A stretch of 64,000 bases of DNA from an uncultured Candidatus Saccharibacteria bacterium (GTDB lineage: Bacteria; Patescibacteriota; Minisyncoccia; Phycocordibacterales; JAACPR01), in the NCBI GenBank assembly GCA_964618845.1, contig CAZUCU010000001.1, positions 468-64,467 of the forward strand, in the 5' to 3' direction. The notes beneath the pieces are model-generated. The model searched no databases. It had not been told where the DNA came from and saw only the letters and a program-made list of their open reading frames with translations. The position numbers and the translations under genes were made by a program. Positions 14,223 through 62,173 of the stretch are shown one piece after another. The number at the start of each line of letters is the position of its first letter. The stretch's first letter is position 1.

Positions 14223-14633
14223 ATGAAAATAGCCAAAAAGAAAGAAAAATATGTTGAAGGTATTGGAAGAAGAAAAGAATCAGTGGCCAGAGTCAGGCTT
14301 TTTGAATCAAAAGAAAACTCTGTTTTAATTAATGAAAAAGCTGTAGAGGTTTTTTTTAAAACCGAAATCCAAAAAAAGATTGCTCTTCAGTCCCTAATCA
14401 ATATATCAACAGAAAAAAAATATAAAGTTATCGCTATAGTTAAAGGTGGAGGTATGTCATCTCAAGCGGAATCAATTAGACTTGGAATTGCAAGAGCTTT
14501 GGTTAAAATAGATGATAGTTTAAGAAAAGAATTAAAGAAAAAGTCTTTTCTTAAAAGAGACCCGAGAGCAAAAGAGAGGAGAAAGTTTGGTTTGAAAAAG
14601 GCTCGAAAAGCCCCACAATGGAGTAAGAGATAA
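14223..14633 (+). CDS. rpsI: 30S ribosomal protein S9
   Basis: C-terminal RDPRAKERRKFGLKKARKAPQWSKR is the S9 signature. Confidence 0.9.
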   Translation: MKIAKKKEKYVEGIGRRKESVARVRLFESKENSVLINEKAVEVFFKTEIQKKIALQSLINISTEKKYKVIAIVKGGGMSSQAESIRLGIARALVKIDDSLRKELKKKSFLKRDPRAKERRKFGLKKARKAPQWSKR

Positions 14634-14640
14634 TTCGAAA

Positions 14641-14732
14641 ATTCATATTACCAAAATATCTTTTCGAAATTGTTTAGCCCAGTTTGAGATATTGTGATAG
14701 TATGTTTTCAAAGATATTTTGGTAATATGAAT
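14641..14732. promoter_or_regulatory. Perfect 23-bp inverted repeat (ATTCATATTACCAAAATATCTTT ... AAAGATATTTTGGTAATATGAAT) with a 46-nt spacer, between rpsI and grpE
   Basis: Read directly: arms at 14641-14663 and 14710-14732 are exact reverse complements. The spacer contains TTGAGA and TAGTAT promoter-like hexamers. Confidence 0.5.
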
Positions 14733-14748
14733 TATCCTTATTTAAAAT

Positions 14749-15306
14749 ATGAAAAACAAAAAAGTAGAACAAGATGATATTGTTTTTGAATCTGATGATG
14801 AATCAGTGGAAATTGATTTTGTCCAAAAAATAAAAAAAATAAAAGAAGATTTAAAAAAATGTCAGGAAGAAAAAGCAGAGTATCTTGATGGTTGGCAAAG
14901 GGCAAAAGCAGATTTTATAAATTATAAAAAGACTCAAGAAGAAAATTTACATAATCACAGAAAATATGCCAACGAAGATTTGACTGTATCCATATTTCCA
15001 GTTTTGGATGCATTTGAAATGTCTCTTAAGGATCATGGTGAGGGGGAGGAAATTAAAAGGTGGAAAACTGGTTTTGAACATGTTTATAAACAATTAAAAA
15101 AAATTTTAGAAAGTGTAGGAGTTGAACAATTAAACCCAGAGGGAGAAACTTTTGATCCAAACCTACATGAATCTATAGAAATGATTGAGACAGACAAAAA
15201 AGACAAAGACCATAAAATTGCAAAAGTAGTAATGCGAGGTTATAAACTCGGTGATAAAATACTACGCGCTCCGCAGGTAAAAGTTTGGGTCTGTAAGACA
15301 GAGTAA
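14749..15306 (+). CDS. grpE: Nucleotide exchange factor GrpE
   Basis: GrpE coiled-coil and beta-domain blocks (DGWQRAKADFINYKK ... VLDAFE). 185 aa. Precedes dnaK. Confidence 0.85.
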   Translation: MKNKKVEQDDIVFESDDESVEIDFVQKIKKIKEDLKKCQEEKAEYLDGWQRAKADFINYKKTQEENLHNHRKYANEDLTVSIFPVLDAFEMSLKDHGEGEEIKRWKTGFEHVYKQLKKILESVGVEQLNPEGETFDPNLHESIEMIETDKKDKDHKIAKVVMRGYKLGDKILRAPQVKVWVCKTE

Positions 15307-15310
15307 GTGT

Positions 15311-15339
15311 TTACAAAAACATTTTTTTGTCTTATAATA
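15311..15339 (+). promoter_or_regulatory. Sigma-70-like promoter TTTACA-N17-TATAAT upstream of dnaK
   Basis: Near-consensus hexamers with 17-nt spacing. Followed by GAAGTGAAAAGT and a triple CTTCTCG tandem repeat (15391-15412). Confidence 0.45.
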
Positions 15340-15390
15340 CGCCCACTAATTAATAGCAAGGAGTAAGAAGTGAAAAGTGGGAAGAATTTG

Positions 15391-15412
15391 CTTCTCGCTT
15401 CTCGCTTCTCGC
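15391..15412. repeat. Tandem heptamer repeat (CTTCTCG)x3 in the dnaK 5' region
   Basis: Seen directly. The same GAGAAGC-family motif occurs at 3798-3825, 3946-3970 and 37342-37383. Confidence 0.8.
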
Positions 15413-15430
15413 TTTTAACTTTAAATATAT

Positions 15431-17329
15431 ATGTCAAAAATTTTAGGTATTGATTTAGGAACAACAAATTGTGCAATGGCAATAATGATTGCTGGGAATC
15501 CAGAAATTATTGAAAATACTGAAGGAAACAGAACAACCCCTTCGGTTGTTGCCATATCAAAAAATAATGAGAGATTGGTTGGTCAAACCGCAAAAAGACA
15601 ATCAGTGACAAATCCCAAAAATACAATTTTCGGCATAAAGAGGTTTATTGGTCATTCTCATGACGATCAATCGATTTTAAAAGACAAGGAAACTGTTCCT
15701 TTTGAAATTTTAAAATCTAATAATGGTGGAGTTACAGTAAAAATGCAAAATAAAGAATATCGACCAGAGGAAATCTCTGCTATGATTTTACAAAAATTAA
15801 AACAAGATGCAGAAGCAAAAACAGGAGAAAAAATTACAGAAGCAATAATTACAGTTCCGGCATATTTTAATGATTCTCAAAGACAGGCCACAAAAGATGC
15901 GGGTAAAATTGCAGGACTTGAAGTTAAAAGAATTATTAATGAACCAACGGCAGCGGCTCTTGCATATGGTTTTAATAAAAAGAAAAATGAGCAAATTATT
16001 GTTTTTGATTTTGGTGGAGGAACTTTTGATGTTTCTGTTTTGGAAGTGGGAGACGATGTCATTGAAGTAAAATCAACAGATGGTGATTCTCATATGGGTG
16101 GAAAAGATATTGATCAAAAAATTATAAAATGGATTATTGATGAATTTAAAAAACAAACAGCAATAAACCTTTCTGGTGATCCGCTTGCAATGCAACGACT
16201 TTATGAAGAAGCAGAGAAAGCAAAGATTGAACTTTCAACGGCACAAGAAACCGAAATAAACATTCCTTTTATTGCGTCAGGACCAAATGGACCAGAGCAC
16301 TTGGTTTTAAAATTTTCACGAGCTAAACTTGAAGAATTATCAAATGAATTTATAGAGAGAGCAATTGAAATCACAAAAAGAGCAATGGAAGCTTCTCCAT
16401 TTAAAATTTCGGATATTGATGAAATAGTGTTGGTGGGAGGTCAAACAAGAATGCCAAAAATCCAAGAAGAAGTAAAAAAACTTTTTAATGGAAAAGAACC
16501 AAATAAATCAATTAATCCAGATGAAGTGGTAGCTCTTGGAGCAGCACTTCAGGGGGGGATTATGCAAGGAGATGTAAAAGATGTTTTACTTCTTGATGTT
16601 ATTCCACTTTCACTTGGTATTGAAACACTCGGAGGAGTTGCAACAAAATTAATTGATAGAAATACAACAATTCCTGCATCAAAATCTCAAATTTTTTCAA
16701 CCGCAGCAGACAATCAAACTCAAGTAGAGATCCATATTGTTCAAGGGGAACGAGCAATGGCATCTGACAATAAATCTCTTGGAAGATTTATTTTGGATGG
16801 AATTCCACCAGCACGAAGAGGCATGCCACAAGTAGAAGTTACTTTTGATATTGATGCAAACGGAATTTTGAAAGTTTCTGCCAAAGATAAGGCGACAAAC
16901 AAAGAACAATCGATTAGAATCGAAGCGAGATCAGGTCTTAGTGAAGCTGATATAAAGAAAATGCAAGACGAAGCCACAATACATGCCAGTGAAGACGAAA
17001 AGAAAAAAACACTTATTGAAAAGAAAAATTTGGCAGAGCAAATGGTCTATACTGCAGAAAAAACTTTAAAAGATGGTGAAGAAAAAATTAAATCAGAAAC
17101 AAAAACTGAAGTTGAAGAAAAAATTAAAAATTTGAAAGAAAAATTAAATTCTGAAAATGTTGATGAACTTCAAAAACTTACAGAAGAACTTTCTGCATCA
17201 CTTCAAAAAGCAGGCACAGAGATGTATTCTAACCAAGGTTCAGAGAATAATGCTCAGAGATCAGATAAAAATGACAATGTAAAGGAAGCGGAGGTTGAAC
17301 GCGAAGATAAAAACGACGAAAATAAATAA
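15431..17329 (+). CDS. dnaK: Chaperone DnaK (Hsp70)
   Basis: [24 protein letters not shown] and other Hsp70 signatures. 632 aa. Confidence 0.95.
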
Positions 17330-17345
17330 TTCTATTAACTGATCA

Positions 17346-18221
17346 TTGAAAACCGATTATTTCATGTCAAAAGACTACTACAAAATTTTAGGTATAAACA
17401 AAAACGCTTCCAAAGAAGAGGTAAAAAAAGCTTTTCGCAAACTTGCTTTGGAACACCATCCAGATAAGGGGGGGAGTGAAGCAAAATTCAAAGAAATAAA
17501 TGAGGCATATTCTGTATTGTCAGATGATAAAAAACGTGCTCAATATGATCAATTTGGAACGGCTGATTTTAATGGTTTCAATGCTGGTCAGGGCTTTAGT
17601 GGATTTGATTTTTCTGGATTTGGACAAAATGGACAAGGATTTGAATTTGATTTGGGTGATATTTTCAACCAATTTTTTGGTGGAGGTTTTAGAAGACAGA
17701 GAAAAGGTTCAAACATCCAAGTTGATTTAGATCTTGATTTTAAAGAGTCAATTCTTGGAGTAAAAAAGAAAATTTCTTTTTATAAAAATAGATCTGATAA
17801 AAAAACAGAACTTGAAGTAAAAATTCCAGCAGGTGTTGATAATGGAGAAGTTTTAAAAATTAGAGGAGAAGGAGAACCAATAGAAGATGGCCAACCCGGA
17901 GATCTTTATGTTGCTATTCATGTAAAAACACACCCAAAAATACACAAAAGAGGTGTACATTTAGTTCAAGCCCTTGAAATTTCTATTTCCGAAGCAATTT
18001 TGGGAACCAAAAAAGAGATTGAAACTATAGATGGTAAATTAAAAATTAAAATACCACCAGGATCTAACACAGGCGATATTTTGAAAGTAAAAGGGGAAGG
18101 AGTAAAAATCTCTGAATATAAAAGAGGAGATATGTTAGTTGGAATAAAAGTCAATATTCCAGATAAGGTTTCAGGAAAAGTTAAAAAGATACTTGAAGAA
18201 TTAGATAAAGAAGGTTTATAA
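17346..18221 (+). CDS. dnaJ: J-domain co-chaperone (DnaJ/CbpA-like, lacking the CxxCxGxG zinc finger)
   Basis: J domain with HPD ([33 protein letters not shown]). G/F-rich linker. C-terminal substrate-binding repeats. Confidence 0.8.
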
Positions 18222-18693: not shown

Positions 18694-18719
18694 CATTTAC
18701 AATAAAAAAGATTAGGTAT

Positions 18720-18914
18720 ATATTTAAAAACGGTATGAAGATTAGATACCATCTGGTTAATGGCGTTCCTCAAAGGAAAAAAGAAGAAGAAATCGAAATC
18801 CGGGGAAAAACGGAAAAATACAAAAAACCTCGGAATCGCCGAGAACGCTTTCGCCACCACCCAAGTGGCAGATTTCTTCCGCATTTTTCCTTTGTTAGGT
18901 AGCCTCCAGTTTGT
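18720..18914 (+). ncRNA. Candidate structured RNA / 5' leader: a GC-rich island relative to flanks, upstream of trpS. Identity unknown.
   Basis: Local GC well above flanks. Ends in a strong intrinsic terminator (next feature). No canonical T-box, tmRNA, SRP or RNase P motifs recognised. Confidence 0.25.
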
Positions 18915-18956
18915 GCCCCACATCATGTCGTCATCAACATGATGTGGGGCCTTTTT
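18915..18956 (+). terminator. Rho-independent terminator: 13-bp perfect stem GCCCCACATCATG / CATGATGTGGGGC, then CTTTTT
   Basis: Seen directly. Confidence 0.8.
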
Positions 18957-20150: not shown

Positions 20151-20537
20151 ATGCTAAAGGATTTTGATAGTTGGAATCTAATAAAGAAAAGAATAGACCT
20201 AGAAAATAGGGTACCTATTAGGGTTGGTGAGATATTTTGGTGTAAGCTTGGTCTAAATATTGGTGTTGAACAGAATGGAAACGAAAAAGAATTTACTAGA
20301 CCAGTTATAATTATAAAAAAATTCTCAAATCAAATTGTTTTAATTGCTCCATTAACAACCAAACCCCATAAAGGCAATTGGTATTTAGAAAAAGATATTC
20401 TTGGAATTAAACAACAAATAATCCTAAATCAAATCAAACCAGTTGATGTTAAAAGGTTAACAAAAAGTTTGGGAGAGATATCTGAAAAAGAAGTTCAACT
20501 AATATTATATGAGTATTTTAAATTGCTTATTCTTTAA
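20151..20537 (+). CDS. PemK/MazF-family toxin-like protein (putative endoribonuclease) with no recognisable antitoxin partner
   Basis: GEIFWCKLGLNIGVEQNGNEKEFTRPVIIIK ... IAPLTT resembles the MazF/PemK signature (GxIxxxDxxP...RPxxVxS...xxPxTS). 128 aa. Confidence 0.5.
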   Translation: MLKDFDSWNLIKKRIDLENRVPIRVGEIFWCKLGLNIGVEQNGNEKEFTRPVIIIKKFSNQIVLIAPLTTKPHKGNWYLEKDILGIKQQIILNQIKPVDVKRLTKSLGEISEKEVQLILYEYFKLLIL

Positions 20538-39940: not shown

Positions 39941-41014
39941 TTACCCCTCTACTTTTACACTTTCTTCAATTTGAAGTGGGTCTAATTTTACTTCTCCGTC
40001 TGTAATTCGCACGATATCTTTATCGATTTTTTTAAATTCTTTAGCTGACAAATTATATTGATTTACAACTGTCCCCAAATTTTTTCCAAGCTTATCATGA
40101 TAATCTTCATAGGACTTTAAATGTCTTTGAAGCTCTCCTACATATTTTCTAATCTTTTGAGCTGATTCCTCGATCTTGTAGGCCTTAAAACCAAAAAGAA
40201 CTGATTGTAAATATGCCAAAAAAGTTGTCGGCGAAACTATAAAAACTTTTTTTTCATTGTAAGAATAATCGATTAGACTTCGCGAATTTATAGTTGTTGC
40301 ACCAACTGCTCCTGTAAGCAATTCATAATAAATTCCCTCAGCTGGAATAAACATAAAAGCAAAAGAAAGAGTTCCCTCATTCGGTCTAATATATTTGGCA
40401 GTTTCATCAATTCTTCTTTTTAAATCATTTTTGAAATCTCTTTCAAGTTCTGCTCTTCTAACTTCATCACTTTCATTTACTAAACGAGAATAATTATCCA
40501 GAGAAAATTTAGCATCAATTGGGATAATTCCCTCTTTGGTTTTAATTATTGCATCAACCACATCACCATTTTTGAACATATATTGAAGATCATAAGTAGT
40601 TGGATCCAAGGCGTTTTGTAAAACAAGCTCCAAAGCTGCTTCTCCCCAATTCCCTCTTTGTTTTTGATGTTTCAAAACTTTTTCTAAATTGGAAAGTTGC
40701 TCAGCAATTGTAAACACTTGTTTAGTTGATTGGGAGACTTCTGTTACCCCTTTTGTAACATTTAAAAGTTGCTCAGTCATTTGTTTGTTTATGTCTTGTA
40801 TAAGTTGCTGAGATCTTGCAAATTGTTCAGAAGAAACCTGAGCTACATTTTTTTGAGAATCTTGAATAGACCTATTTACTTCATTCATCTGAGTAAGTAA
40901 CATATTTAAACTCTTTTCATCTTGAGAATCCTTTTTCTTGGTAATCAAAAAAACAACCGCTATAACATTTATAACAAGTAAAATAAGCACGATAACAAGT
41001 AATGTTTCTACCAT
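39941..41014 (-). CDS. rmuC: DNA recombination protein RmuC
   Basis: N-terminal TM, a long coiled coil, and the conserved C-terminal RmuC block (GNWGEAALELVL ... PIDAKFSLD ... FMFIPAEGIYYE). Confidence 0.8.
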   Translation of the reverse strand: MVETLLVIVLILLVINVIAVVFLITKKKDSQDEKSLNMLLTQMNEVNRSIQDSQKNVAQVSSEQFARSQQLIQDINKQMTEQLLNVTKGVTEVSQSTKQVFTIAEQLSNLEKVLKHQKQRGNWGEAALELVLQNALDPTTYDLQYMFKNGDVVDAIIKTKEGIIPIDAKFSLDNYSRLVNESDEVRRAELERDFKNDLKRRIDETAKYIRPNEGTLSFAFMFIPAEGIYYELLTGAVGATTINSRSLIDYSYNEKKVFIVSPTTFLAYLQSVLFGFKAYKIEESAQKIRKYVGELQRHLKSYEDYHDKLGKNLGTVVNQYNLSAKEFKKIDKDIVRITDGEVKLDPLQIEESVKVEG

Positions 41015-41099
41015 TGAGAATGATTATAACATATTACAAACATCGGATGTTTGTAATATATGATAAAATTGTTTATATATTAAAATTAATAAAAACAAT

Positions 41100-41552
41100 A
41101 TGAGTTTAATAGAAAAAATTAAGGGAGAAATGAAAGAAGCAATGAAATCTAAAGATACTGTAAAATTAACAGTTCTACGGGGTCTTATTTCTGGTTTTAC
41201 AAACGAATTGGTTGCAACTGATAAAACTCCCCAAGATGAAGTTACTGATGATTTAGCCCTTACTGTAATCAAAAGAGCTTCCAAACAAAGAAAAGACGCA
41301 ATAGAACAATTTGAAAAAGGGGGACGATCTGATCTTGTTGATAATGAAAAAGCAGAATTAAAAATTATTGAAACTTACATGCCCCAAATGATGAGCGAAG
41401 AACAAATAAAAGAAATTGTTCTTAGAAAAAAATTAGAACTTAAAATTTCTGATACTTCTCAAGCGGGACAATTAATAGGAGCTGTTATGAAAGAAATAAA
41501 CGGAAAAGCTGATGGGAGTTTGGTCAAAAAAATTATAACCGAAAATTTATAA
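41100..41552 (+). CDS. GatB/YqeY-domain protein
   Basis: 150 aa with YqeY-type helices (ETYMPQMMSEEQIKEIV). Confidence 0.75.
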   Translation: MSLIEKIKGEMKEAMKSKDTVKLTVLRGLISGFTNELVATDKTPQDEVTDDLALTVIKRASKQRKDAIEQFEKGGRSDLVDNEKAELKIIETYMPQMMSEEQIKEIVLRKKLELKISDTSQAGQLIGAVMKEINGKADGSLVKKIITENL

Positions 41553-43013: not shown

Positions 43014-43211
43014 ATAGATATTATATCAAATTTCAAAATTGAAATATGTAGAATTTTTCCCAAAATCTGTTATTATTCTTTTCACAAACAACGGAGGAAA
43101 ACTTGAAGAATAAATGTTGTCCGAGAGTGTTCGAGTTAGATTTTTGGCGAAGTCATATCGCCAAAAAGCAACGAGTTTCGAGGAAACATTTATTATTTAA
43201 GTTTTCCGTAG

Positions 43212-43283
43212 GGCCCTATCGTCTAACGGTTAGGACAGCGCCTTCTCAAGGCGTAAATCCGGGTTCGATTCCCGGTAGGGTCA
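43212..43283 (+). tRNA. tRNA-Glu (anticodon CUC)
   Basis: Manual cloverleaf: acceptor GGCCCTA / TAGGGTC (one G-U pair), D-arm GTCT-AACGGTTA-GGAC, anticodon stem GCGCC / GGCGT with loop TTCTCAA (anticodon CTC), T-arm CCGGG-TTCGATT-CCCGG, discriminator A. Resembles canonical tRNA-Glu blocks (TCGTCTA..GG..AGGAC, GGTTCGAWTCC). Confidence 0.8.
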
Positions 43284-43949: not shown

Positions 43950-44049
43950 ACATCGTAGATATTATATGATTGATAAATTCAATTCTTCTAAACTTTCTTT
44001 AATACAATCTCTATATCCCAAAAGTTCGGAAAGCCACACTTTGGGGTCA

Positions 44050-44151
44050 CCGCGTCAAACGCGGTTTCAGAACCGTATCAAACGGTATGGAACCACCAAA
44101 TTAACAAACCCCGTTTGACGGGGTCGCAGTGAAGGAGCCCGTCAGACGGGC
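44050..44151. repeat. Cluster of four small GC-stem hairpins (CCGCG-TCAAA-CGCGG, ACCGT-ATCAA-ACGGT, CCCCG-TTTGA-CGGGG, GCCCG-TCAGA-CGGGC) abutting the IS element
   Basis: Seen directly. A near-identical copy of the last hairpin occurs at 53239-53253 in the opposite orientation. Confidence 0.6.
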
Positions 44152-44196
44152 ACGTTCTCATCGCGTCAAAAATTCTCTAAAAAAGTTGATCGTTTT

Positions 44197-45078
44197 CTAA
44201 TCAATAGCTTGGAAACACCCAGACAATAATTGCATCGGAGTTTTGAGCTCAATTCCCATGTGCAATCTTTGCTCGTTATAGTATTTCAAATATTTCTCTA
44301 AAGCACAATTAATAACAGAAACGTTTCTTGGAAGAGTGTCTAAACACTCTTCTTGAAGTGTTCTGTTAAATCTTTCAATGTGTGCATTGTCATTAGGTTT
44401 TCCAATTCTAGTGTATCTATGGTTTCTCTTCACTCTGTCATAAAACCATTTTCCAAATTCACTTCCATGATCTGTTTGTATCATTTCAAAATTAAAAACT
44501 GATTGTCTCTCTGCTTCATTCAAAAACTCAACACTTATTGAAGAGTTTAATCTTTCATACGCTTTCGCAAAAGTGTTTCTAGAATAAACATCAATTAAGG
44601 TGAGAACATATATCCTAGTCTTCGGTCCTGTCATAAGGTGTATAGTGTCAATTTGAACCAAAGAACCTGGCTTTATTGGATATGGTCTATCAACAGGAGG
44701 ATGATATCTCTTCCAAGGAGATCTCTTTTTCATAAGTCCATGTCTATCAATTGTTCTTCTAACAGAGTTCAAAGAAACTTGGATATTTTCATTTAAAAGA
44801 TGTTGATGAACAACTTCACTTGTTCTCTTTGTGTCTAATCTGATTTTAATAATTCTTTTAACTACATTTTCTTCTAATTCCTTAGGATGATGATGTGGTC
44901 GTGAAGATTTGGTTGGTATTGGGTGAATACCGAGTTTTTCAGCTTTCTTTACCCATTTACTAATTGTTCCTGGACTTACGCCATATCTTCTAGCAACCGT
45001 TCTAACACCATATCCAATTCGAACCATAGTCGCAGCATCTCTACGAACTTTTGGCATGTTTGGATTATTTGTATACAT
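44197..45078 (-). CDS. IS481-type DDE transposase (rve integrase core)
   Basis: HTH (RYGVSPGTISKWVKK). The rve core spans LVQIDTIHL ... LIDVYSR ... IQTDHGSEF ... HIERFNRTLQEE. Confidence 0.85.
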   Translation of the reverse strand: MYTNNPNMPKVRRDAATMVRIGYGVRTVARRYGVSPGTISKWVKKAEKLGIHPIPTKSSRPHHHPKELEENVVKRIIKIRLDTKRTSEVVHQHLLNENIQVSLNSVRRTIDRHGLMKKRSPWKRYHPPVDRPYPIKPGSLVQIDTIHLMTGPKTRIYVLTLIDVYSRNTFAKAYERLNSSISVEFLNEAERQSVFNFEMIQTDHGSEFGKWFYDRVKRNHRYTRIGKPNDNAHIERFNRTLQEECLDTLPRNVSVINCALEKYLKYYNEQRLHMGIELKTPMQLLSGCFQAID

Positions 45079-45123
45079 AATGCTTGGATATTACTTTTTA
45101 ATGGAAGTGTTTCCAAGCTATTG
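44202..45123 (-). mobile_element. IS481-family insertion sequence (single-ORF DDE transposase with an N-terminal HTH) bounded by 17-bp terminal inverted repeats CAATAGCTTGGAAACAC
   Basis: Inverted repeats at 44202-44218 and 45107-45123 are exact reverse complements. The transposase ORF sits between them. Confidence 0.75.
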
Positions 45124-52571: not shown

Positions 52572-53006
52572 TTAAATTGCTCCTATTTCCCCCAATTTTT
52601 CTGCCATTTGATCAGCATTCTTGGTAACTTGAAATTTGTACTTTTCCCAACTATCTTCATCCCAAACTTCAATTCGATTGTATACACCAGCAAAAACAAC
52701 TTTAGTTTTTATGTTTGCAAATTTTTTTAAATTTTCTGGAATTAATATTCTTCCAACGGAATCAACATTTATTTCTGTTGCTCCTGACAAGAAAAAACGA
52801 TTAAATCCTCTTTTATCTGCTTGTCCCATTCCAAGCTCTCCAACTTTGGATGCAATTTTTTCCCATCCTTTAACAGGATAGATAAAGAGACAATTATCTA
52901 ATCCTTGTGTAATGATTAATCTTTTTCCAAGCACACTTCTAAACTTACTAGGAAGTGAAATCCTTTTTTTTTCATCAAGTGTGTGTTTGTACTCTCCGAT
53001 TAACAT
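52572..53006 (-). CDS. mraZ: Transcriptional regulator MraZ
   Basis: MLIGEYKHTLDEKKRISLPSKFR. Duplicated SpoVT/AbrB-like halves. 144 aa. Confidence 0.85.
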   Translation of the reverse strand: MLIGEYKHTLDEKKRISLPSKFRSVLGKRLIITQGLDNCLFIYPVKGWEKIASKVGELGMGQADKRGFNRFFLSGATEINVDSVGRILIPENLKKFANIKTKVVFAGVYNRIEVWDEDSWEKYKFQVTKNADQMAEKLGEIGAI

Positions 53007-53160
53007 TTCATATATTTACCACTTTATCCCACTTGATTAATATTATAACCCACTATTTAACATTTTGCACAAATAGTTATCCACAGCATAAGACGAAGCG
53101 CAAAATAAAAAATTCAAAATTCAAAATAAAATTTATTTTCTTTTTTTAGTGAGAACTGAT

Positions 53161-53321
53161 CTTCCCAAAATAAAATTAAATATCTTTCGAGAACCGTGTT
53201 TGAGCGGGAGGATGATTATATTTTTTATAAAGCATATACCCCGTCTGACGGGGTGTAACGAAAATGGCAATCGTGTCTAGAGCGAGTTTTCGAGAAAGAT
53301 ATATAATTTTATTTTGGGAGG
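53161..53321. mobile_element. MITE-like element: about 34-bp imperfect terminal inverted repeats (CTTCCCAAAATAAAATTAAATATCTTTCGAGAAC) flanking about 90 bp that contain a CCCCGTCTGACGGGG hairpin
   Basis: Arms at 53161-53194 and 53286-53321 match in about 30 of 34 positions as reverse complements. The internal hairpin belongs to the CCCGT-loop-ACGGG family. Confidence 0.45.
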
Positions 53322-53322
53322 A

Positions 53323-54798
53323 TTATTCGAGTCGTGGTTTCATTAAAGGAAAGAGTTGTGTTTCTCTTATGGGTTTATCTATCAAAAAAGCAAAGAGCCT
53401 TTCTCCTACTCCAAAACCAAAATTAGGTGGCATTCCATATTCAAGCATTTCAACAAATTCATTGTCACTCATCATTGCTTCTTTGTCTCCTTCCTTTATT
53501 AATTTATTTTGAATATCAAAACGATTTTTTTGATCAATAGGATCATTTAACTCTGCGTGGGCTCTACCAATTTCACTTCCAGCAATTATAATCTGAAACA
53601 TTTCTGTCTTTCTATTATCTTTTTCGTTTTCTTTTGAAAGTGGAGCAACGAGTTTTGGATGATTTACCAAAAAAACAGGACCTGAAATGTTTTTTCTACA
53701 ATATTTCCAAAGAGCATCGGTCATTCTTTCTTTGTTTTTTCCTTCAAATTTTATTTCCAATTTTTCAAGAACTTTTTCCATTTCATTTTCATTTGCTTCC
53801 AAAACATCAACTCCTGTTTGTTTTTTAACTTCATCAACATAATCAATTTCTTTCCACTCAGAAGCCAAATCAAATTTATGACCTCTTGTTTTAAACTTAG
53901 TTTTTCCAAAAACATCTTCCGCAATTTTTATATATAAATCTCTAACAAGCTTTTTCCCCTCTTCCAAATTCATATAGGAAGCATAAAATTCCATATTAGT
54001 AAATTCTTGTAAGTGTTCTGCGCTCCCCCCTTCATTTCTAAAAATCCTTCCTATTTCAAAAGTTCTTGGAAATCCAGCTGCCATTAATCTTTTTTGCCAA
54101 AGTTCACCAACAGAAATTCGAAGATATATATCTATATCAAAATCATTATGATGAGTTTGAAACGGTCTTGCCTCTGCTCCTCCTGTTGTTATTTCCAAAT
54201 ATGGAGTCTCTACTTCTAAAAAATTTTTATTTAGCAAAAACTCTCTCATTGTTTGCCAAAATTTTGCTTTTTTGTAGAAAATCTTTTTTGCGTCATCATC
54301 AAACAATAAATCTAAATATCTTTTTCTAAATCTTTCATCTTCGTCTTTTATTCCATAAAAACTATCGGGAATTGGAAGAAGGGATTTGGTCAAAATTCTC
54401 CAAGATACAACATCCAGACTTTCTTGCCCAGATTTTGTAATAAAAGGTTTTCCTTTTACTTCAATAAAATCTCCAATGTCTACAGTGTCTTTAAAAAGAA
54501 TAAAGGCATCTTCTATTTCTTTATCAAAATAAGAAATATTGTTTTCTTTTTTTAAAACTATTTGAAATTTAGAGGTACCATCAAATATATCGACAAATAT
54601 TATCGCCCCTTGTCCACGTTGAGACATTATTCTACCAACAACTATTAGCTCTTGATTTTGTAATTTATCAAAATAATCAACAATCTCTTTGAGATTGTGG
54701 GTTTTTAATGACTTACTTGGATAAACATTTATCCCCAAAGTTTCTAATTTTTTTCTTTTTTTGAGCCTTATGGCTCGTAATTCTTCATGTGATGCCAT
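53323..54798 (-). CDS. lysS: Lysine--tRNA ligase (class II)
   Basis: N-terminal OB fold. Motif 2 FEIGRIFRNEG. Motif 3 region. 491 aa. Confidence 0.9.
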   Translation of the reverse strand: MASHEELRAIRLKKRKKLETLGINVYPSKSLKTHNLKEIVDYFDKLQNQELIVVGRIMSQRGQGAIIFVDIFDGTSKFQIVLKKENNISYFDKEIEDAFILFKDTVDIGDFIEVKGKPFITKSGQESLDVVSWRILTKSLLPIPDSFYGIKDEDERFRKRYLDLLFDDDAKKIFYKKAKFWQTMREFLLNKNFLEVETPYLEITTGGAEARPFQTHHNDFDIDIYLRISVGELWQKRLMAAGFPRTFEIGRIFRNEGGSAEHLQEFTNMEFYASYMNLEEGKKLVRDLYIKIAEDVFGKTKFKTRGHKFDLASEWKEIDYVDEVKKQTGVDVLEANENEMEKVLEKLEIKFEGKNKERMTDALWKYCRKNISGPVFLVNHPKLVAPLSKENEKDNRKTEMFQIIIAGSEIGRAHAELNDPIDQKNRFDIQNKLIKEGDKEAMMSDNEFVEMLEYGMPPNFGFGVGERLFAFLIDKPIRETQLFPLMKPRLE

Positions 54799-60727: not shown

Positions 60728-61321
60728 TTATCTTTCCCATACAATATGTCCGTTTATATCATGTTTTTCGAAAGTTTTTAAAATATCTGCACAAAATTTT
60801 ATAAGTTCTTTATTTTTTTCAGTTTTGGCCAATTCATAAAGTCGTATAAACATTTTCTTTCCTGTTTCTGTCTGTTTAAAATTTTTCTTAATAAAATTAT
60901 GTTGAGAACATAAAGTTTGGCCGTTTTCAATTGTTGCTTCTCCACCGAAATCTTTAGATTTAATATGATCAATATGCAATTCAACTCCTTCTTTTTTACC
61001 TCTGCCACAAATAACACATTTATATCCGTCTCTCTTCAGAATTTCTGTTTTTTGAGAATATGTAAAATCTTCTAATTTCCTTAAGTGAGCTTTTTTAGGA
61101 TCATACTTATAAATTCCTTTCGCTACTTTAACCAAAAAACCATTTTGTGATAGTTTTCTAATCGCTCGATCTGGATCACGAAAAATCTTACCTGTCCGTT
61201 TCTTATATGTTGAAACTACCCAATCAACAACTTCGGGATGTTTTATATCCCTTTTAGGATTTGATTTAAAAAATTCGATTATTAAATCTTGTTGAATTAA
61301 ATTATTTTTGTCTTTTTTCAT
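60728..61321 (-). CDS. HNH-family endonuclease: candidate restriction endonuclease of a Type II R-M pair
   Basis: CVICGRGKKEGVELHIDHIKSKDFGG ... NGQTLCSQHN HNH motif with flanking Cys. Directly downstream of a DNA methyltransferase. Confidence 0.7.
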   Translation of the reverse strand: MKKDKNNLIQQDLIIEFFKSNPKRDIKHPEVVDWVVSTYKKRTGKIFRDPDRAIRKLSQNGFLVKVAKGIYKYDPKKAHLRKLEDFTYSQKTEILKRDGYKCVICGRGKKEGVELHIDHIKSKDFGGEATIENGQTLCSQHNFIKKNFKQTETGKKMFIRLYELAKTEKNKELIKFCADILKTFEKHDINGHIVWER

Positions 61322-61324
61322 AAA

Positions 61325-62173
61325 TTATTTTATTAAAATTTCTTGATTAATTTTTGCTTCTTCTTTTAAACGTGTTATAGCAATATCACAATATTTTCTA
61401 TCAATATCAATTCCAATTCCAATTCTATTATGTAAATATGAAGCAATAAGAGTTGAACCACTTCCCAAAAACGGATCCAAAATTGTGTCCCTTTCAAAAC
61501 TAAATAATTTTATACATCGTCTCGGCAACTCCACAGGAAAAGGTGACGGATGCCCACCCGCTCCTTTTTTATTTTGTCCGGGAAAAGTCCAGATACCATA
61601 TGTCCAATCTAAAAATTCTTTTTTAGTAATATCATTTATTCTACTGCCACCAGTTTTTTTCCAACTATCTTTATATAAAACCAATATTAATTCAACAGGA
61701 GCTATAACATAAGGAGCAGAAGCTGACATATAAGAACCCCAAGCAGTTCGACGAGAAATATTTCCTTCATTCCAAATAATAGTTGAATGATATTTCCAAC
61801 CAATATCTTTTGCAATTTTTGTTATATCTGCACCAACAGATTTTTGACCACCTTTATTTTTATCTAAAGGAATATTTAATAATAATCGCCCCTCGATTTT
61901 TGCCAAATCAAAACATTTTTTTATCCATTTTTTAGTAAACTCCAAATATTCTTCATATGAAAGATTATCATCATTAGAATTGTAATGAATATCGACATTG
62001 TAGGGTGGTGAAGTAACAATAAGATCAATCGATTCATTGGGAATAGATTTTATAGTTAAAATATCTTCATTGAAAATTTTAATATTTTTAGTCTCAAAAT
62101 AAGGCCTTCGAGTTAAAATTTTTGAATTTTTTATATTTTTTTTTACTATTTGCATTGATTGGTATTCTAACAT
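61325..62173 (-). CDS. DNA methyltransferase, beta-class amino-MTase (N4-cytosine or N6-adenine)
   Basis: Motif IV SPPY (IVTSPPYNV) precedes motif I DPFLGSGST, the circular permutation typical of beta-group N4C/N6A methyltransferases. 282 aa. Confidence 0.8.
   Translation of the reverse strand: MLEYQSMQIVKKNIKNSKILTRRPYFETKNIKIFNEDILTIKSIPNESIDLIVTSPPYNVDIHYNSNDDNLSYEEYLEFTKKWIKKCFDLAKIEGRLLLNIPLDKNKGGQKSVGADITKIAKDIGWKYHSTIIWNEGNISRRTAWGSYMSASAPYVIAPVELILVLYKDSWKKTGGSRINDITKKEFLDWTYGIWTFPGQNKKGAGGHPSPFPVELPRRCIKLFSFERDTILDPFLGSGSTLIASYLHNRIGIGIDIDRKYCDIAITRLKEEAKINQEILIK

Follow-up and report, generated by a model that had tools for sequence, protein, structure and literature searches.

An inverted repeat between rpsI and grpE

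The DNA analyzed here, referred to as the window, is a 64,000-nt stretch of contig CAZUCU010000001.1 from an uncultured Candidatus Saccharibacteria bacterium, and the feature under study is a long inverted repeat located between the ribosomal protein gene rpsI and the chaperone gene grpE. The gene rpsI (14223 to 14633, plus strand) is the last of an rpsM-rpsK-rpsD-rpoA-rplQ-rplM-rpsI run, while grpE (14749 to 15306, plus strand) is followed by dnaK (15431 to 17329) and dnaJ (17346 to 18221). Pfam confirmed the identity of rpsI and of the three chaperone genes, as well as that of rplM upstream of rpsI. The grpE gene has no Shine-Dalgarno motif and no adjacent leaderless-type promoter of its own.

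The 23-bp arm of the repeat, ATTCATATTACCAAAATATCTTT, lies at 14641 to 14663 and its exact reverse complement at 14710 to 14732, with 46 nt between them. A first-pass annotation, made from the letters of the window, had described a perfect 23-bp repeat with a 46-nt spacer between the two genes. This description was confirmed, and the perfect pairing was found to be one base longer (24 bp, 14640 to 14663 with 14710 to 14733, 24 of 24 Watson-Crick). Outward extension gives 27 bp with a single mismatch, i.e., 26 of 27 positions paired between the left arm at 14637 to 14663 (GAAAATTCATATTACCAAAATATCTTT) and the right arm at 14710 to 14736 (AAAGATATTTTGGTAATATGAATTATC). The repeat begins 7 nt past the rpsI stop codon and ends 16 nt short of the grpE ATG. 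In a whole-window inverted-repeat scan it was the strongest long-spacer inverted repeat of the 64 kb; the repeat is real and far beyond chance.

RNA folding of the rpsI-grpE junction, one of the checks suggested in the first-pass annotation, predicted one long hairpin (-36.9 kcal/mol, z = -5.5), and the hairpin was predicted equally well from either strand (z = -5.5 to -7.8). The predicted energy of the element was about -33 to -37 kcal/mol, with the helix ending 12 to 16 nt before the grpE AUG. The stem is A+T-rich, the loop is 46 nt long and the 3' tail after the stem reads AUUAUCCUUAUUUAAAAU. Within the spacer, a third, degenerate copy of the arm was found at 14687 to 14704 on the plus strand (AGATATTGTGATAGTATG, against AGATATTTTGGTAATATG of the right arm). 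It agrees with the right arm at 15 of 18 positions (83%) and is 83% complementary to the left arm, with which it could pair to give an alternative, weaker hairpin; no equivalent was found in the orthologous elements of relatives L012 and L015 (see below). Allowing up to 3 mismatches, the arm itself did not occur a second time in the window, and shuffled versions of the window gave no match. Matches to 17-mers at 3 mismatches were scattered over the window and were dismissed as chance.

Presence and absence of the repeat in relatives

The nearest matches to GrpE came from uncultured Patescibacteria labelled Paceibacterota, Nomurabacteria or Saccharibacteria. We compared the junction in twelve relatives, distinct at the species level, that share the rpsI-grpE synteny and whose GrpE is at least 58% identical. 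Contigs encoding an identical GrpE were found in seven samples, and the element was identical wherever it was spanned. In 7 of the 12 relatives, rpsI and grpE are separated by 24 to 51 nt without any repeat (L008, L013, L016, L097, L101, L103, and L105). A long inverted repeat was present at the same junction in L012 (GrpE 73% identical; 26-nt arms, 66-nt spacer) and L015 (GrpE 66% identical; 28-nt arms, 41-nt spacer). These two repeats begin at the same place past the rpsI stop, and their arm sequences differ while complementarity is kept. The junction is thus polymorphic for the presence of the element, which is found in the window, L012, and L015 and is missing from seven relatives.

Two more of the twelve have other long palindromes at the same junction, L099 (21- to 31-bp arms) and, as a hairpin, L098; neither was recognised as related to the element of the window. 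Distant Paceibacteria mostly have a classical terminator after rpsI, followed by a leaderless-type grpE promoter. A GrpE search of genome contigs returned 4 loci. A metagenome GrpE search yielded, among the matches listed, distant relatives only (37 to 50% identity), and no element of this type was found at those loci. In another distant relative (L011, positions 178 to 269), rpsI ends in the 14-nt sequence GGAGTAAAAGATAA, and its perfect reverse complement comes next; a G+C-rich segment of 46 nt then leads to a second direct copy, GGAGTAAGAGATAA. The arrangement resembles an insertion bordered by a duplicated end of the gene.

A family of palindromic intergenic elements

The three strongest long-spacer inverted repeats of the window are the rpsI-grpE copy and two repeats on the minus strand, at 43096 to 43207 and 53159 to 53323. 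The first of these paralogous copies has 23-nt arms and a 66-nt core and lies 4 nt from a tRNA gene (43212 to 43283). The second has 35-nt arms (89% complementary) and a 95-nt core; it abuts the stop of a class II aminoacyl-tRNA synthetase gene (53323 to 54798, minus strand) and lies upstream of mraZ (52572 to 53006, minus strand). In reverse complement, the tRNA-adjacent copy forms a gap-free alignment of about 123 nt with the L012 element (nhmmer E = 2e-33), so that the rpsI-grpE element of L012 is most similar to a copy at a non-orthologous site in the window. The cores of these two copies (TCCTCGAAACTCGTTGCTTTTTGGCGATATGACTTCGCCAAAAATCTAACTCGAACACTCTCGGAC in the window and TCTTCGAAACTCGCTGCTTTTTGGCAGTATGCGACATCCAAAAATCTAGCTCAAACAATCTCAGAC in L012) are identical at 55 of 64 positions (86%), while their arms are 52% identical in gapless register (alignment A4) and 68 to 88% identical in gapped local alignments.

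A covariance model was built from the two-sequence gapless alignment of the L012 element and the tRNA-adjacent copy, with a hand-specified structure. This model found the rpsI-grpE repeat of the window (35.4 bits on the plus strand, E about 1e-5, and 32.5 bits on the minus strand), the copy at 53159 to 53323 (37.4 bits, E = 6e-6, minus strand only), and the L015 element (42.7 bits, plus strand only), while 292 kb taken from other loci and 498 kb of viral loci gave no match. Scans of viral contigs with core motifs gave 0, 0, 41, and 8 matches, all of which the covariance model assigned to chance. A further repeat of the window, at 18771 to 18894, scored only 15.5 bits and probably belongs to a separate small-RNA-like locus. 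An nhmmer match in L036 was located inside the grpE coding sequence and was spurious. In a MAFFT alignment of six candidate copies, the arms were out of register and RNAalifold predicted no pairs.

The elements are 100 to 165 bp long, with arms of 23 to 35 nt that are 89 to 100% complementary, and have no open reading frame inside. They share a plan in which the left arm is followed by T(C)TCGAAAC(TCG), a variable inner hairpin (e.g., TTTTTGG...CCAAAAA or CCCGTCAAACGGG), (G)CTCAAACA.TCTC.GA(C), and the right arm; an outermost GGAAA...TTTCC is common to three copies only. Four of the five copies are co-oriented with the adjacent transcription unit. At gathering thresholds, Rfam reported one tRNA only in the whole window, and a permissive Rfam search around the three window copies and the 18.7-kb region gave only sub-threshold matches to hairpins resembling plant microRNA precursors.

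Together, these comparisons make it probable that the rpsI-grpE repeat belongs to a family of palindromic, non-coding repeats located between genes, in which long A+T-rich arms surround a conserved core. The family is found in a narrow lineage of Patescibacteria (Paceibacteria-like bacteria of the candidate phyla radiation [CPR]), and apparently undescribed. That the repeat belongs to a family of repeated elements had been overlooked in the first-pass annotation.

Four or five short palindromes of the repetitive extragenic palindromic (REP) type, with a GTCAAAC or GTCAGAC center, were also observed at 44047 to 44170, beside the insertion sequence described below (CCGCGTCAAACGCGG, ACCGTATCAAACGGT, CCCCGTTTGACGGGG, and CCCGTCAGACGGG). 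The same type of hairpin forms the inner hairpin of the L015 element and of the copy at 53159 to 53323.

Arms covary while the core is constrained

In an alignment fitted to the covariance model, 95.2% of the arm cells were paired and 33 of 42 pairs had changed on both sides. None of 500 shuffles reached these values, and sliding the partner reduced pairing to 38 to 58%; the pair counts are nevertheless inflated, as the alignment was fitted to the structure and three loci entered it as both strands, and to that extent they weigh less in favor of the family. An independent pairwise count gave 3 to 6 compensated pair changes between any two copies. G·U pairs made up less than 2% of the arm cells and were rarer than other mismatches. 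Since G·U is not favored and Watson-Crick pairs hold, complementarity is kept on both strands, and we infer that a DNA-level process, or selection for hairpins on both strands, maintains it, not selection acting on RNA only.

One such process is known. Template switching during replication of imperfect inverted repeats drives them toward perfect complementarity (PMC7202029). Quasipalindrome correction of this kind would explain a stem with 24 of 24 Watson-Crick pairs and no G·U bias. It differs from the present case in being a mutational mechanism and not a family of elements, and the pattern of pairs suggests its action here.

The core behaves differently. At four-fold degenerate sites of rpsI and grpE, the window and the L012 genome were identical at 27 of 68 positions, with an identity of 0.34 expected by chance. 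Because these sites are near chance, the 86% identity of the cores is far above the neutral level, and because the arms have diverged, recent transfer is unlikely. The core therefore looks constrained and may have a function of its own.

The core of the rpsI-grpE copy is inverted

In the rpsI-grpE copy of the window, the 46-nt spacer (14664 to 14709) corresponds to the family core on the minus strand, i.e., in reverse orientation compared to the orthologous copies, and its core motifs read GAAAAC ... CTCAAAC ... CTAAACAAT.TCGA on that strand. The reverse complement of the spacer aligned to the L015 core with z = 6.0 (forward, -0.5) and to the L012 core with z = 2.8 (forward, 1.0). Colinearity with L012 and L015 holds just outside the arms, where the left side reads TAATTCGRAAA and the right side TCCTYATTTAAA. 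The covariance model agrees: in this copy it recognized the core solely on the minus strand and the outer flanks solely on the plus strand. When the spacer was flipped in silico and scored with profile hidden Markov models, the scores were tiny and inconsistent, so the inversion is read from the pairwise alignments. The simplest reading is that the segment between the arms was inverted during evolution.

Similar events have been described in plastid genomes, where a short segment between inverted repeats occurs in opposite orientations among relatives while stems and flanks remain colinear (PMC12371153 and related plastome papers). The likeness lies in a passive, recombinase-independent flip. 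The plastid inversions differ in that they usually involve a few to a few tens of nt in non-coding hairpins with no conserved core, whereas here the core of a family is affected, in a bacterium.

An inverted promoter-like segment between inverted repeats is also what would be expected of a programmed invertible promoter (inverton), in which the 46-bp segment would flip and thereby switch a grpE-facing promoter within the population. Like fimS, hin, and the Bacteroides-type invertons, the element has inverted repeats around a promoter-like segment whose orientation differs between genomes. The core is inverted compared to the orthologous copies with colinear flanks, and in its present orientation the extended -10-like motif TGATAGTAT faces grpE. 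Three short contigs of the same strain also end within 3 nt of an arm edge. Known invertons, however, have a cognate recombinase, segments usually of at least 100 bp, and both orientations in one population, none of which was seen in the window or the assembled contigs. All five same-strain assembled contigs that span the element have the same orientation. Pfam detected no serine or tyrosine recombinase in the window, where the only transposase is that of an insertion sequence with unrelated ends, and 46 bp is a very short segment for recombinase-mediated inversion. Moreover, in the forward orientation the contigs end 2 to 3 nt into the spacer, and a k = 31 graph would be broken elsewhere by an inversion bubble. 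Loop flips between species are, as outlined above, a known passive property of hairpins (PMC12371153). We consider a programmed switch very unlikely, and a passive inversion between species remains our reading.

Each orientation is defined by its junction sequences, where a slash marks the arm edge. The forward junctions are ...AAAATATCTTT/TCGAAATTG and ...GTATGTTTTC/AAAGATATT, and those of the flipped form are ...AAAATATCTTT/GAAAACATAC and ...AACAATTTCGA/AAAGATATT (short forms ATATCTTT/GAAAACATAC and AATTTCGA/AAAGATAT). The three short contigs, L004, L005, and L006 (Logan; SRR16642469, SRR16642462, and SRR16642468), come from one study and end at the equivalents of window positions 14708, 14639, and 14707. 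Their ends may reflect a drop in coverage at a strong hairpin or real structural heterogeneity. In addition, this genome, with its long perfect inverted repeats and flipped core, encodes an RmuC-family protein (39941 to 41014). RmuC of Escherichia coli is described as limiting inversions at short inverted repeats.

The repeat is not a heat-shock operator

An inverted repeat upstream of a grpE-dnaK-dnaJ cluster recalls the controlling inverted repeat of chaperone expression (CIRCE), the binding site of HrcA. CIRCE, however, is a conserved 9-bp repeat with a 9-nt spacer (TTAGCACTC-N9-GAGTGCTAA), and it recurs at the dnaK and groESL operons together with hrcA; the repeat of the window differs in sequence and dimensions, and no such recurrence was seen within the window. 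The first-pass annotation had stated that CIRCE and hrcA are lacking, and both statements held. No CIRCE was found in the window at up to 3 mismatches, and no HrcA domain was detected by Pfam in the 65 window open reading frames scanned. The CIRCE core TTAGCAC-N15-GTGCTAA was likewise absent from 154 fetched loci. A CIRCE-like repeat in L081 lies inside rpsI and was dismissed as chance.

In the same annotation, the arms had been proposed as a protein operator pair around the promoter. Spelled out, this reading has an unknown non-HrcA heat-shock repressor, dimeric or tetrameric, that occupies the two 23-bp arms and either loops out or blocks the enclosed promoter. Two identical sites do flank promoter-like hexamers directly before grpE-dnaK-dnaJ, and the window lacks CIRCE and hrcA. 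However, the region upstream of dnaK has no copy of the arm and has its own promoter, no arm was found elsewhere in the window, the orthologous elements of L012 and L015 have other arm sequences, with pairing alone kept in the comparative alignment, and 7 of the 12 relatives with the same synteny have no repeat. Homologous elements adjoin non-stress genes, and the copies beside the tRNA gene and between the aminoacyl-tRNA synthetase gene and mraZ show that the element is not specific to stress genes. Finally, Pfam revealed no candidate regulator encoded nearby in the window. Recurrence of the arm at other stress genes and its conservation in related genomes had been named beforehand as the tests of this proposal, and with the arm absent at dnaK and unconserved in relatives, the operator reading fails. 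These sequence comparisons refute the view that the rpsI-grpE repeat is a heat-shock repressor binding site, nothing ties the repeat specifically to heat-shock control, and we leave the looping operator pair next to no probability. A literature search on repeats or heat-shock regulation in CPR bacteria found nothing relevant.

The dnaK upstream region contains a strong and conserved promoter, TTTACA-N17-TATAAT, at 15310 to 15338, followed by ACGCCCAC and then by a long hairpin in the 5' untranslated region that is unrelated to the rpsI-grpE repeat. This leader hairpin (about 15355 to 15415, within 15307 to 15430; z = -4.1) has arms made of short tandem repeats, (CTTCTCG)x3, and is rich in G·U pairs on the plus strand. 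Hairpins were also present in the grpE-dnaK spacers of L099 (2123 to 2201), L016, L101, L098, and L105, and absent from L097, L015, and L103; their sequence differs in every species, e.g., (CATGTCT)x3 in L101 and (TCTATCTG)x2 in L099. The dnaK leader hairpin looks like a fast-evolving leader structure acting at the RNA level. In L098, a near-identical hairpin, GTCAGTAGTCAGTCTTCAG ... ACTGATGACCGACGACTGA, precedes both grpE (1419 to 1487) and dnaK (about 2340 to 2415). This is the pattern that the operator proposal had hoped for, but in a different species and with a different sequence.

Promoter motifs and possible effects on RNA

A Shine-Dalgarno-like motif was found upstream of only 4 of 67 window genes, while 19 of 67 have a T-rich TGnTAnnnT motif 6 to 8 nt upstream of the ATG; this placement suggests that leaderless mRNAs are widespread in this bacterium. 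The promoter-like hexamers that had been noted in the spacer are present, as consensus matches only. The extended -10-like motif TGATAGTAT (14695 to 14703, plus strand) faces grpE and fits the TGnTAnnnT pattern, resembling the grpE promoters of the distant relatives L009 (TGTTAGTAT) and L010 (TGCTAGTAT), and its predicted start lies near 14710, the first base of the right arm. A second motif of this type within the right arm, TGGTAATAT (14720 to 14728, plus strand), also faces grpE, and its mirror image at 14645 to 14653 on the minus strand faces into rpsI. With a position-weight matrix derived from 19 leaderless promoters, and therefore over-fitted, TGGTAATAT reached the 99.7th percentile of window scores, though the training promoters scored far higher, and it counts as a consensus match only. 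Transcription of grpE may start from a motif inside the element, and this is the least secure step of the interpretation.

The location of the repeat directly after the last ribosomal protein gene raised the question of whether it could be a plain terminator of this operon with an unusually long hairpin. A classical terminator does occur at exactly the same place in L009, L010, and many of 80 metagenome loci, where a grpE promoter then follows. The repeat, in contrast, lacks a G+C-rich stem and a U-tract and has a loop of 46 nt, and the terminator scan did not report it, so that it was rejected as an intrinsic terminator. Canonical terminators are used elsewhere in this genome (e.g., 18915 to 18950), and the same type of element lies upstream of genes and beside a tRNA gene. 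A terminator role is thus improbable. An RNA thermometer of the ROSE or fourU type was also rejected, as the 24- to 27-bp helix is too stable, the AUG is not sequestered, and grpE has no Shine-Dalgarno motif.

The first-pass annotation had alternatively considered a long RNA stem affecting read-through from the ribosomal operon. Assuming read-through from rpsI, the plus-strand RNA is predicted to contain an uninterrupted 24-bp helix, longer than the roughly 20 bp of double-stranded RNA looked for in RNase III hairpins. A long stem in read-through transcripts of the ribosomal operon is plausible, at most as a by-product; G·U pairs are almost lacking, which speaks for upkeep of the palindrome at the DNA level and against RNA-specific selection.

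A proposed explanation and its analogues

For a member of the family proposed above, the observations could be connected as follows. The arms would be kept complementary by hairpin-templated quasipalindrome correction or by exchange between the arms, and exchange would also flip the enclosed core. Read-through from rpsI to grpE is likely, given that the genes are only 24 to 51 nt apart in close relatives, and a read-through RNA carrying the element would fold into a helix of 24 to 27 bp, long enough for RNase III. By analogy with the Correia and enterobacterial repetitive intergenic consensus (ERIC) elements, this helix would be a transcript boundary or an RNase III processing site between the ribosomal protein message and grpE. 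A grpE transcript starting from TGATAGTAT or TGGTAATAT would contain the right arm only and form no hairpin.

The closest analogues are the Correia elements of Neisseria and ERIC, and we suggest that the family works like such a repeat, without claiming it as a proven transposable miniature inverted-repeat transposable element (MITE). It shares with MITEs the terminal inverted repeats around a short non-coding segment, which in MITEs is under about 300 bp, the related copies at non-orthologous sites, and the variable presence at an orthologous site. Reportedly, promoters arise at the ends of Correia repeat enclosed elements (CREE), and these elements are bound or cut by RNase III (PMC2649163, PMC2229807). 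Like these CREE, also termed Neisseria miniature insertion sequences (NEMIS), the present elements are non-coding and intergenic (about 100 to 155 bp in Neisseria), have long terminal inverted repeats around a conserved core, form long hairpins, would be co-transcribed with their neighbors, and vary in presence among related genomes. Correia elements differ, however, in having a TA target duplication, 26-bp ends conserved over hundreds of copies, and an integration host factor (IHF) site. No target duplication was seen in the present elements, in which the core is the conserved part and the arms vary. Only five copies of them are known, and their sequence does not resemble that of the Correia elements; effects through RNase III and promoters are assigned by analogy.

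ERIC elements, or intergenic repeat units (IRU), are imperfect palindromes of about 127 bp located in transcribed intergenic regions, with sequences conserved between species at different loci. The L012 element and the copy at 43096 to 43207 follow this same pattern. ERIC differs in its unrelated sequence, its phylum, and its far higher copy numbers, and we know of no flipped core described for it.

Several observations weigh against an element family of this kind. On inspection, the flanks of all five copies lacked a direct repeat that would mark a target-site duplication, and no transposase whose ends match was found in the window. The sole insertion sequence (44202 to 45123), located in a stretch of higher G+C, encodes a transposase with helix-turn-helix and rve domains (44197 to 45078) and has 17-bp perfect ends (44202 to 44218 and 45107 to 45123) that are unrelated to those of the elements, and it was rejected as an autonomous partner. 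The arms differ among copies, whereas the ends of classical MITEs are their most conserved part, and the sampling is thin, with five known members (three in the window and two in relatives). The promoter motifs of the element match a consensus but score weakly with the matrix, a -10-like motif is lacking from the L015 core, and no rnc gene was seen in the window. Finally, strong conservation of the core together with free covariation of the arms equally characterizes a functional structured RNA or DNA element, as opposed to a selfish repeat.

Such an element, made of RNA or single-stranded DNA, would not be selfish; its helix would present the conserved loop GAAAC ... CUCAAACA.UCUC and the inner hairpin to a protein, and the rpsI-grpE copy would be a selected insulator or processing site that sets the ratio of ribosomal protein to chaperone message. 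Between genomes with saturated synonymous sites, the core keeps 86% identity, and the arms covary. Two compensated pairs were also found inside the core in alignment A4 (T-A to C-G at columns 32/92 and C-G to T-A at columns 43/78). The co-orientation of four of the five copies, the other long palindromes at the same junction in L099 and L098, and the fact that every copy folds (z = -6 to -8) point in the same direction. In the rpsI-grpE copy, however, the core lies on the non-transcribed strand. The arms show no preference for G·U pairs, no Rfam family matches, 7 of the 12 close relatives do without the element at this junction, and five copies are too few for a sound covariation test. We regard this explanation as possible but rather unlikely. 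More speculatively still, and with a low probability, the elements could form an undescribed class of functional nucleic acids in CPR bacteria, with a covarying helix and a conserved core of about 40 to 95 nt, that sets transcript boundaries and delivers promoters, the flippable core at the rpsI-grpE junction giving these regulator-poor bacteria a recombinase-independent means of coupling or uncoupling chaperone expression and the ribosomal protein operon.

Returning to the palindromic repeat family as the probable explanation, the analysis removes a tempting but wrong lead, that of a new heat-shock operator in a phylum with undescribed stress regulation, and replaces it with a concrete object, a small and apparently undescribed family of palindromic intergenic elements in Patescibacteria. 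If confirmed by a wider census, the family would be a marker of genome dynamics in reduced genomes and a bacterial example of hairpin-loop flipping and of the perfecting of palindromes. In that case it might also supply promoters and RNA-processing sites to organisms that, judging from the window, have almost no Shine-Dalgarno motifs and mostly leaderless-looking promoters. The conserved core and its flipped orientation are the parts of most value for follow-up.

Other features of the window and its relatives

The window has a G+C content of about 30%. Between a membrane-protein open reading frame and trpS, the region from 18696 to 18950 may hold a small RNA gene with no Rfam match. It begins with a promoter-like TTTACA-N17-TATATT (18696 to 18724), which is followed by a G+C-richer body containing the repeat 18771 to 18794 / 18871 to 18894 and by the strong canonical terminator at 18915 to 18950. 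Downstream of trpS lies a gene for a MazF/PemK-type toxin (20151 to 20537).

In L103 (1089 to 1214), a G+C-rich nested palindrome with 20-nt arms and an 86-nt spacer containing inner hairpins was found between a gene with ATP-cone and Mrr_cat domains and alaS; it was not matched by the covariance model. At 60728 to 62173 of the window, an HNH endonuclease gene adjoins an N6/N4 DNA methylase gene, and the two are probably a restriction-modification pair. Finally, a palindrome with 21-bp arms and a 1-nt spacer (41024 to 41066) is located between the divergent genes rmuC (39941 to 41014, minus strand) and a yqeY-like gene (41100 to 41552, plus strand). It overlaps the rmuC promoter TGTTATAAT and may be an operator or a symmetric divergent promoter.

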